From: Candidatus Poribacteria bacterium
Lineage (GTDB): Bacteria > Poribacteria > WGA-4E > PCPOR2b
Assembly (NCBI GenBank): GCA_965208325.1
Contig: OZ242326.1
Location: forward strand, 1,728,001 to 1,792,000
DNA: 64,000 nucleotides
Direction: 5' to 3'
Shown here: positions 10,018 through 11,244 of the stretch, piece after piece
Layout: each line of letters begins with the position of its first letter
How positions within the stretch are numbered: the first letter of the stretch is position 1
The notes under the pieces: model-generated
What the model saw: the letters and a program-made list of their open reading frames with translations, nothing else
Database searches by the model: none
Told to the model about the DNA's origin: nothing
Translations under genes and position numbers: made by a program

Positions 10018-11244
10018 TCAATCTAAGGAAGCGTAATATTCAACGATGACCTGCCACGCCTTCTCGCTCATGAATCCGTCGGGCGGGGATTCGCCGTTCC
10101 GCGCGTATTCACGCATCTGCGAACCTGAAACGAAAAGAAAATCCGGGGCGCGGTTGGGTTCAAAAAAGCCCATACTGCCCGCGGCTTTGTCATAAGCCGC
10201 GACGCGGAAAGGGACGATTTTCAGGCGTTCTAGTCCAACCGCCGCCTGTAACGCCTTCACTCCGTGCCAGGGATCGTATAACGGGGCGGACTTGCCGCCG
10301 GAGTCCAGCCGCTCTGGATGCAGCATGCCTGCCGGGTCCCGCCCGACGATGTAGTAATCCGCGCCAGCGTTCATCCGCGCCTTCGCATGCCACTGCACCT
10401 CGGTTGGACCGGCGTAAAGCATCGGACTAGGAAAAATCGAGACGACTGTCGTGTCCGCATCCAGAACACCGTCTTCCAGAACTGCGTCGTGTTGGCGCAT
10501 CCGCACCTGCAACGGCACATCGTCGGCTTTTGTCCAACCGCCGAGTGGATGGAGCAGGAGCATCGGGTTTTGATATCCCTGTTTTTTTAGCTCGTCCCGG
10601 GTCTCGTTCATCAACAGCGCATGACCGTTGTGAATGGGGTTGCGGAGTTGAAACGCATAGACAACATCCGCACCGCGCCGTTTGAATTCGGCGCGAATTT
10701 CCGCAGGACTCAAGCGATATTGATCCAGACCATCGTTGTAGGTGATTCGATCAAAAACTTCGAGTTCCCCGCCGACAAGGTAATTCCCCATCGCATTGAT
10801 TCTCTCGATACTCGGGTGTGCAGGGTGGGTTAAACCGAATGTCCGTGCTGCCCGCTCCTCTTTTGGGTGCGGGTAAAACTCCGGGTCACGTAAGATTGCA
10901 ACGGCATTTCCTTCGGTGTTAACCAGCGCCACTGCTTTCTGATTTTTCAAACGGTTAAAATTGTCGGTAGAAACGTCTAGCGTAATCGGAATGGACATAT
11001 TCACACGCGTCCCGTCGTGCTGGCGTAGGCAGTTAAAATGAAGCGTCTGCAAAAATTCATCTTCGCGCATAAACCCGCGAAGCGGGCTCGCCCATCCTTC
11101 GCTGAGGACATGTACCCACTGGACATCGTAATCGGTAACCGGAAGTTTTGGACGGTCTGTTGCTTCGGCACGTTTTTTTACCCGTTGATTGTCGGGTACG
11201 ATTAAGTCTACTAGAGCACCGCCGTCTGGTGCAATTAAGGACAT
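10018..11244 (-). CDS. sat: Sulfate adenylyltransferase (ATP sulfurylase), plant/metazoan-type sequence
   Basis: [53 protein letters not shown]; AGGAG RBS upstream. Confidence 0.95.
   Translation of the reverse strand: [408 protein letters not shown]

Follow-up and report, generated by a model that had tools for sequence, protein, structure and literature searches.

A plant/animal-type ATP sulfurylase in place of the ordinary bacterial enzyme in some Candidatus Poribacteria

The ATP sulfurylases (ATPS; sulfate adenylyltransferases) of streptophytes and the ATPS domains of the bifunctional 3'-phosphoadenosine 5'-phosphosulfate (PAPS) synthases (PAPSS) form a clade that, in the accessible part of a phylogenetic study, is said to comprise eukaryotic sequences only (Patron et al. 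2008, PMC2275785). The same text links the metazoan and choanozoan isoform that is fused to adenosine 5'-phosphosulfate (APS) kinase most closely to the isoforms of plants and stramenopiles, and it proposes a lateral transfer from a eukaryote to cyanobacteria for a different ATPS clade (Patron et al. 2008, PMC2275785). In the accessible text of a review, the phylogeny of ATPS and the course of its evolution are described as matters still to be clarified (Prioretti et al. 2014, PMC4220642). The present analysis concerns a gene of this type in a bacterial chromosome. The window, i.e. the whole analysed stretch of 64,000 nucleotides from the genome of a Candidatus Poribacteria bacterium (assembly GCA_965208325.1, contig OZ242326.1, positions 1,728,001 to 1,792,000 of the forward strand), encodes a stand-alone ATPS of the plant/animal type (Table 1), and the enzyme is the only sulfate activator detected in that genome. 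On balance, we consider it fairly probable that this working enzyme goes back to one inter-domain transfer, most probably an ancient one from a eukaryote to a bacterium, which was followed by spread among bacteria and by displacement of the native sat gene. No report of a plant/animal-type ATPS in bacteria was found in the openly readable literature, subscription-only papers lying outside the search so that an earlier mention is possible, and the Poribacteria literature on ATP sulfurylase or sulfate adenylyltransferase contained generic mentions only. Its evolutionary position is unusual and has apparently not been described before: with these copies, bacteria apparently form for the first time a coherent group within or next to a clade that was supposed to be restricted to eukaryotes.

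An earlier note on this DNA, made from the letters and known motifs, had assigned the gene to the plant/PAPSS-type clade, and both the reading frame and all peptides quoted from it were recovered in the translation. The protein scores 371.6 bits against NCBIfam TIGR00339 (cut-off 322.95), and its PUA-like N-terminal domain is followed by the ATP-sulfurylase domain, the order that characterizes Sat (EC 2.7.7.4). Its best match among the solved structures is the soybean ATPS (4maf, 565 bits, residues 3-407 of the query aligned to residues 2-401 of the chain), and the ATPS domains of human PAPSS1/2 (PDB 1x6v, 2qjf and 7fh3) score 490-502 bits, whereas the Sat structures of bacteria, archaea and fungi reach 95-153 bits, plus one weak partial match at 40 bits. 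Members of the plant/animal clade share 55-70% of their residues with the window protein, ordinary Sats about 30%.

The motifs of the window protein lie at residues 42-74, 197-212, 229-245, 270-295, 301-307, 345-353 and 387-392, with a motif of the Q.RNP.H.GH type within residues 197-212 and GRDPAGM at 301-307. We take Q.RNP.H.GH and GRD to be the catalytic motifs of ATP sulfurylase, and the motifs of the nucleotide/sulfate site are invariant in 23 bacterial copies as well as in the plant and animal rows of the alignment. The motif contrast that the earlier note had drawn between the two kinds of enzyme holds on real sequences: the window protein, 22 other bacterial copies, glaucophytes, streptophytes and animals have common plant/animal-type motifs including GRDPAGM, whereas 15 ordinary Sats read FQTRNP.HRAHE, YAGPREA..HA and GRDHAGV. 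The signature motifs of the subclade, including PP.GFM, are all present in the window protein, in contrast to the consensus of the outgroup. One element of the original argument had to be given up, namely the plant-like start of the protein: LI.PDGG.LV has a counterpart, I.PHGG.L, in ordinary Sats, and therefore the N-terminal I.P.GG.L motif is ancestral and not a plant signature. A further feature is an insertion of six residues at about residues 312-317, after GRDPAGM.HPE, which, one Poribacteria family (f3) excepted, all bacterial lineages possess; none of the aligned sequences of plants, glaucophytes, red algae and animals has it.

The soybean enzyme (4maf) and Arabidopsis APS1-4 have the same arrangement of PUA-like and catalytic domains, can be aligned with the window protein from end to end and have identical or near-identical motifs, and the mean identity to 11 streptophyte sequences is about 62%. 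Unlike the streptophyte enzymes, the window protein is devoid of a plastid transit peptide and carries the six-residue insertion that plants lack, and its gene is located in a bacterial chromosome, behind a ribosome-binding site of the bacterial kind. Animal PAPSS has an ATPS domain that belongs to the same clade and shows the same motifs (about 56% identity), but the window ATPS is unfused, and the APS kinase is encoded by a separate, distant gene (Table 1) that has been inherited vertically within the order. The closest named eukaryotes are the glaucophytes Cyanoptyche, Cyanophora and Gloeochaete, with 64-66% identity to the window protein and 70% to the copies of the Latescibacterota group; their proteins differ from it by N-terminal extensions of about 80 residues and by the absence of the bacterial insertion. 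The ordinary homo-oligomeric Sats (PDB 1v47, 1jhd, 4dnx and 1g8f, and those of most Poribacteria) are members of the same superfamily, contain the same Pfam domains, catalyse the same reaction and have the core RNP.H..H, GRD and the N-terminal I.P.GG.L in common with the window protein, yet they are only about 30% identical to it, exhibit other motif variants and are separated from it by a branch of about 3.3 changes per site. A precedent for the inter-domain transfer of an ATPS into bacteria has been published for marine Synechococcus and Prochlorococcus, but, as far as the accessible text goes, that case concerns the clade of chlorophyte and red-lineage plastid isoforms and not the streptophyte/animal clade (PMC2275785).

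A Pfam scan of the 408-residue protein did not detect the APS kinase domain PF01583, which distinguishes it from the bifunctional PAPS synthases, and the CysDN heterodimer belongs to an unrelated fold family. The gene context that is found in eukaryotes, i.e. a transit peptide or a fusion to APS kinase or pyrophosphatase, is likewise missing: the protein starts at the conserved core and has no extra domains. It should be noted that this context is a feature of the host organism and has no bearing on the enzyme fold. The host genome contains a single PF01747 match, the window gene, and a search of that genome with the CysD profile (TIGR02039) gave no match; thus, the window protein is the only sulfate-activating enzyme detected. 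Because of the 62-70% identity to characterised plant enzymes and because no other ATPS and no CysD were found in the genome, the protein is almost certainly functional and would convert ATP and sulfate to APS and pyrophosphate. Its biochemistry is ordinary. The soybean ATP sulfurylase is reported to be homodimeric and non-allosteric, and by analogy the window enzyme may form a plant-like dimer.

For the phylogenetic analyses, all sequences were cut to the ATPS region by profile. The bacterial copies consisted of loci and of unnamed metagenome proteins, and the 26 named eukaryotes comprised 11 streptophytes, 3 glaucophytes, Cyanidioschyzon, 9 animals, Amorphochlora and Diplonema; further rows were representatives without a name, in many of which the ATPS is joined to APS kinase, to pyrophosphatase or to both, and 15 ordinary Sats, six of which came from the phylum of the window. 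One partial match (P0191) and one locus whose extracted ORF showed no domain (L020) were left out of the trees, and seven near-duplicate metagenome rows were dropped before the second of two quick trees. In a tree of 74 rows and 403 columns, calculated with LG+C20+F+G4 by the posterior mean site frequency (PMSF) approach, the window protein is placed in the plant/animal clade of 59 rows, which is separated from the 15 ordinary Sats with a support of 100/100 and by a branch of about 3.3 changes per site. It does not fall within a large clade of ordinary bacterial Sats, the outcome that would have spoken against the earlier assignment. In the list of matches, the identity drops from at least about 45% inside the clade to at most 40% outside, and no intermediate breaks the stem to the ordinary Sats. 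The type spans streptophytes, glaucophytes, red algae, animals, a chlorarachniophyte and Diplonema.

A second tree of 39 of the 74 rows was calculated without all 15 outgroups, without the long-branch rows P0133, P0129, P0137, P0138, P0140 and Diplonema, without two nematodes, and without redundant plants and bacteria. In this tree, the 14 bacterial sequences, including the Planctomycetota copy, form one group (92/90; 90% of the bootstrap trees), and the six-residue insertion agrees with a single bacterial group. The group attaches deep in the clade, at a point (97/87) that separates streptophytes and the fused forms of protists from glaucophytes, red algae and animals. For the 74 rows, monophyly of 23 bacteria against 26 eukaryotes and 15 outgroups was not rejected by an approximately unbiased (AU) test (delta lnL 4.94, p-AU 0.359). 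The animals constitute a clade of their own that excludes the bacteria, both with nine animals in the 74-row tree (94/84) and with seven in the 39-row tree (100/99). A sister group relationship of the bacteria and the glaucophytes was found only in one quick tree, with a value of 82 in the Shimodaira-Hasegawa-like approximate likelihood ratio test (SH-aLRT), and not in the careful trees.

Three unnamed metagenome proteins form very long branches inside the clade, i.e. two fusions of APS kinase and ATPS (P0129 and P0137; 555 and 570 residues) and one stand-alone protein of 418 residues (P0133), and in two trees they lie near the Planctomycetota copy. If they were bacterial, the bacterial side of the clade would widen. 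A match from Cocos nucifera (P0006, 789 bits), considered as a possible bacterial contaminant, proved to be an ordinary gene model of the plant in which a segment of the ATPS is duplicated.

The occurrence of the gene in the phylum is characterized by patchy distribution and DISPLACEMENT: the plant/animal type was found in 12 of the 176 genomes (66-100% identity, E <=2.5e-188), always as a single match. The holders are all four genomes of the genus of the window, the sole genome of another genus in the family, six of the seven genomes of a second family of the same order, and the sole genome of a family in another order. Any match to the window protein was obtained for 169 of the 176 genomes, and 157 genomes, including 24 of the window's own family, have a distant ordinary Sat only (E-values not below 2.3e-52; among the rows listed, the identity was 28-35%); the seven genomes without a match to the window protein have completeness values of 61-96%. 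The single match in each holder and the ordinary Sats of the relatives together imply that the native sat was displaced, and not that a gene was added. Thus, the type does occur in related genomes, where the earlier note had suggested looking for it, but it is not a property of the lineage as a whole and results from a patchy replacement of sat.

The sat genes of the phylum are of three very different kinds, one of which is the plant/animal type of the 12 genomes. The second kind, from families f1, f2 and f4, forms a long branch (1.66 changes per site in its stem) and is 28-35% identical to the window protein. The third kind, from families f5-f11, is 31-35% identical and groups with other ordinary bacterial Sats. 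As the ordinary Sats of the phylum are themselves of two very different kinds, the phylum must have exchanged its sat repeatedly.

A scan of 185,579 species genomes for two invariant motifs revealed 13 loci, i.e. ten in Poribacteria, one in a metagenome-assembled genome (MAG) that nests among Poribacteria, one in Latescibacterota and one in Planctomycetota. Within the respective phyla, the type was present in 1 of 33 genomes of Latescibacterota and in 1 of 401 sampled genomes of Planctomycetota; the Latescibacterota holder is a groundwater MAG. The neighbours of those loci are bacterial in kind and include genes for a sulfatase, a formylglycine-generating enzyme, a solute-binding protein, an ABC ATPase and a HAD hydrolase.

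The gene is an integral part of the chromosome in which it was found. The host genome is a single contig of 4,707,648 bases with 95.6% completeness and 1.6% contamination. The GC content of the ATPS gene is 54.5%, compared with a mean of 50.8% (standard deviation 3.2) for 1736 long open reading frames (ORFs), and its codon-usage likelihood lies at the 87th percentile of these ORFs; both values are host-like, and therefore the gene is not compositionally foreign. The closest loci among the species genomes are found in four closed Candidatus Poribacteria chromosomes, with protein identities of 96, 86, 85 and 75%. Three of these genomes belong to the same genus, and in these three the flanking genes are arranged in identical order (81-99% identity), with a PHP metallohydrolase on one side and a TIM-barrel protein, a Zn-dehydrogenase, a PhyH protein, a sugar transferase and nucleotidyltransferases on the other. 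As had been stated before, the gene lies among bacterial genes: its neighbours in the window encode a PHP/CehA-McbA metallohydrolase, a xylose-isomerase-like TIM barrel, a Zn alcohol dehydrogenase, a PhyH protein and an ABC ATPase, families that are bacterial in kind. Two sponge-metagenome contigs of 13,064 and 39,967 bases, from two other studies, span the PHP, ATPS, TIM-barrel and alcohol dehydrogenase genes and carry 111 and 85 substitutions over about 4 kb (about 97-98% identity). One run (X1) is identical to the stretch and may be the source of the assembly. Thus, the presence on one contig, the shared neighbours and the independent contigs exclude contamination and a chimeric join, the second outcome that would have removed the basis of the earlier proposal.

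As regards the direction of the exchange, a slight preference is given to an ancient transfer from a eukaryote to a bacterium, with subsequent spread among bacteria and displacement of the native sat. A single inter-domain transfer would lie behind all bacterial copies, and the gene would then have moved among some Poribacteria, one Latescibacterota MAG and one Planctomycetota MAG, displacing the native sat. This direction is favoured because the type is present in several eukaryotic supergroups but rare in prokaryotes (13 loci in 185,579 species genomes; 12/176, 1/33 and 1/401 in the three phyla), because close relatives of the holders, from the same family, carry ordinary Sats, because no bacterial intermediates shorten the long stem to the ordinary Sats, and because the copies of the Latescibacterota group are nearer to glaucophytes (70%) than to families f1 and f3 of the Poribacteria (66-67%). 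The same four points, and the quick tree in which the bacteria are sister to the glaucophytes, speak against the alternative that the type arose in bacteria and that the copies in Poribacteria, Latescibacterota and Planctomycetota are the surviving relatives of the donor to early eukaryotes, sister to all eukaryotic copies. A bacterial origin is, in our view, possible but rather doubtful. It is consistent with the position of one bacterial group on the deep backbone and inside no eukaryotic lineage, with a divergence within the bacteria (57-73% identity) that is as large as that among eukaryotic supergroups, and with the retention of the ancestral N-terminal I.P.GG.L of ordinary Sats in the bacterial copies; furthermore, monophyly of the 26 named eukaryotes against 23 bacteria and 15 outgroups, with the bacteria outside, was not rejected (delta lnL 2.63, p-AU 0.431). 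In the accessible text of the published review, the origin of the eukaryotic isoform is called unresolved (PMC4220642). If the type did originate in bacteria, the enzyme that serves sulfur assimilation in plants and PAPS synthesis in animals would have been acquired from a relative of the present bacterial holders around the early diversification of eukaryotes, and the bacterial gene would be a rare, horizontally wandering relic and the long-missing prokaryotic sister group of the eukaryotic enzymes. Several of the observations mentioned, notably the large divergence among the bacterial lineages and the result of the AU test on the eukaryotes, weigh against a eukaryotic source, and the following points have to be added to them. 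If the transfer was ancient, a sparse presence in bacteria is expected under either direction. The tree is silent on direction: one bacterial group that sits on a deep branch is compatible with both rootings. Since the group attaches to the deep backbone and lies inside no single eukaryotic group, no donor can be named. Within the clade, the 74-row tree leaves 11 lineages in a polytomy, and its bootstrap was not fully converged (correlation 0.977). The position of the root shifts, lying by the nematode and Planctomycetota rows in the first quick tree and on the fused protist clade in the second, and therefore no direction is drawn from rooting with the ordinary Sats; long-branch effects from the outgroup branch of about 3.3 changes per site are likely. 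In addition, the unnamed metagenome proteins were taken as bacterial from their length and from their clustering with named MAG loci. A eukaryote-to-bacterium transfer is the direction preferred here, but the AU tests reject neither arrangement, and the evidence stops at the same alternative, transfer from eukaryotes or a line of bacteria that stands close to where the clade arose, that had been formulated at the outset.

The remaining explanations would do without an ancient exchange. A recent acquisition from the sponge host, in which a symbiont took over the ATPS half of the host's PAPS synthase, might be suspected, as the stretch or parts of it are present in sponge-metagenome runs of several studies, so that the organism lives in sponges, and as the C-terminal half of animal PAPSS is an enzyme of this type. 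This is very improbable, however: the animals form their own clade to the exclusion of the bacteria (nine animals were sampled, with no sponge PAPSS among them), the identity to animals (55-59%) is the lowest of all core groups and below that to glaucophytes and plants (61-70%), the composition of the gene matches the host genome, and the bacterial group, with an internal identity of 57-73%, includes the groundwater Latescibacterota MAG and other Poribacteria MAGs. The notion of an artefact, i.e. a eukaryotic contaminant or a chimeric join in a bacterial contig, has the eukaryote-like sequence itself as its sole ground and can practically be dismissed in view of an intronless gene with a GAGGAG ribosome-binding site, both of which had been correctly described before, of host-like GC content and codon use, of the single 4.7-Mb contig with its high completeness and low contamination, of three closed genomes of the same genus with the same gene order and 85-96% protein identity, and of the 13-kb and 40-kb contigs of two other studies that bridge both flanks. 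It is equally hard to believe that an ordinary bacterial Sat converged on plant-like motifs, because the similarity extends over the full length (62-70% to glaucophytes and plants over about 400 columns versus about 30% to ordinary Sats) and the plant/animal clade is supported by 100/100.

The earlier note had pointed out that no gene for an APS kinase or a reductase lies near the ATPS gene. This is indeed so, but the partner enzymes are encoded elsewhere in the genome (Table 1). The best PDB match of the host APS kinase is Arabidopsis APK1 (3uie, 252 bits), compared with about 167 bits for bacterial CysC domains. A joint transfer of the APS kinase was nevertheless rejected: the kinase is 66-75% identical across the order irrespective of the ATPS type, with up to 97% among members of the order, and its conservation through the order whichever ATPS is present indicates vertical inheritance. 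The plant-like score thus reflects conservation and not transfer, and since the kinase does not follow the distribution pattern of the ATPS, only the sulfurylase was exchanged. The CysH-family reductase is most similar to the APS reductase of Pseudomonas aeruginosa (2goy, 132 bits versus at most 86 for PAPS reductases), and it carries CC and C..C cysteine pairs, which we take to be typical of iron-sulfur APS reductases. In addition, the genome contains one match to the sulfotransferase family and one sulfatase match. To judge from this gene content, the window enzyme would form APS and pyrophosphate from ATP and sulfate, and the APS may take two routes: reduction by the CysH-family APS/PAPS reductase and sulfite reductase with subsequent synthesis of cysteine by CysK, and phosphorylation by the separate, vertically inherited APS kinase to PAPS for sulfation.

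Table 1. Positions of the ATPS gene, its domains and associated signals, the neighbouring gene and the partner genes of sulfate assimilation; positions without prefix refer to the window, those with the prefix C1 or L002 to partner genes elsewhere in the genome.
Feature	Position	Strand	Remarks
ATP sulfurylase (sulfate adenylyltransferase) gene	10018..11244	-	Uninterrupted ORF, 408 codons; stand-alone plant/animal-type protein of 408 aa
PUA-like domain PF14306 (PUA_2)	Residues 4-165 of the 408-aa protein		Pfam, 157.4 bits
Catalytic ATP-sulfurylase domain PF01747	Residues 174-403 of the 408-aa protein		Pfam, 219.3 bits
Shine-Dalgarno-like GAGGAG	11250..11255	-	5 nt upstream of the ATPS ATG; read from the sequence
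Sigma-70-like promoter match TCGACT, 18 nt, TG-TATAAT	11301..11330	-	In the 195-bp divergent intergenic region; consensus match only
PHP-fold CehA/McbA-family metallohydrolase gene	9018..9968	-	49 nt past the ATPS stop codon
APS kinase gene, 206 aa	C1:1107592-1108209 (L002 1417-2037)		About 630 kb from the ATPS gene
CysH-family APS/PAPS reductase gene	C1:22019		Directly after a cysK-like gene
819-aa frame with two NIR_SIR matches (sulfite reductase)	~C1:284 kb		

The PHP gene that follows the ATPS gene is probably co-transcribed with it. Its product scores 114.8 bits against NF038032 (cut-off 80), and the match to the Pfam family PHP is below the cut-off (23 bits). The gene adjoins the ATPS gene, just downstream of it, at five other loci (L015, L006, L007, L009 and L010) with 62-95% identity, in two Poribacteria families. 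The idea that this neighbour is a phosphatase for 3',5'-bisphosphate nucleotide (pAp) found no support, as the score against NF041577 is 32 bits at a cut-off of 400 and the matches to PDB sequences are marginal. At a locus of a third lineage (L018, 7250-9267), the ATPS gene is followed by a gene for a type I phosphodiesterase/nucleotide pyrophosphatase and then by one for an APS kinase, and a gene for a formylglycine-generating enzyme is located upstream. If a phosphoesterase drew the unfavourable ATPS reaction forward or cleared pAp, it would be a counterpart to the fusions of ATPS and pyrophosphatase in protists.

As regards expression signals, the scan for promoters and terminators gave counts equal to chance, with two promoter sites found versus 2.0 expected in shuffled sequences, and therefore the consensus match upstream of the ATPS gene is no evidence of function. 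An Rfam scan of the window at gathering thresholds detected no riboswitch and no other RNA family, and no RNA dataset was among the listed sequencing runs that carry the stretch.

Parts of window positions 8500-12800 are found in 20 listed runs from 11 studies, many of them of sponge metagenomes; four of the runs were aligned, so the smaller shares are no evidence of habitat. In one of the runs (X6), an otherwise collinear 40-kb contig has 849 and 1700 other letters in place of two short stretches at window positions 8615-9030. As these replacements lie beyond the PHP gene, where the window contains only small doubtful ORFs, they mark a strain-variable spot. On the other side of the ATPS gene, ORFs at 14330-17512 resemble a sugar transferase, two nucleotidyltransferases and a SIS-domain protein, which, judged by eye from the translations, gives this region a sugar-nucleotide/polysaccharide flavour.

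A coherent bacterial group with a plant/animal-type ATPS provides a handle on the source of the eukaryotic sulfate-activation enzyme, and it represents a clear, datable case in which, within one phylum, a native housekeeping gene was displaced after an inter-domain transfer. It also offers a soluble, intron-free bacterial version of the plant and human enzyme for biochemical comparison. For the biology of the sponge symbionts, it means that some Poribacteria activate sulfate with a different enzyme from that of their relatives, while the chemistry itself is ordinary.

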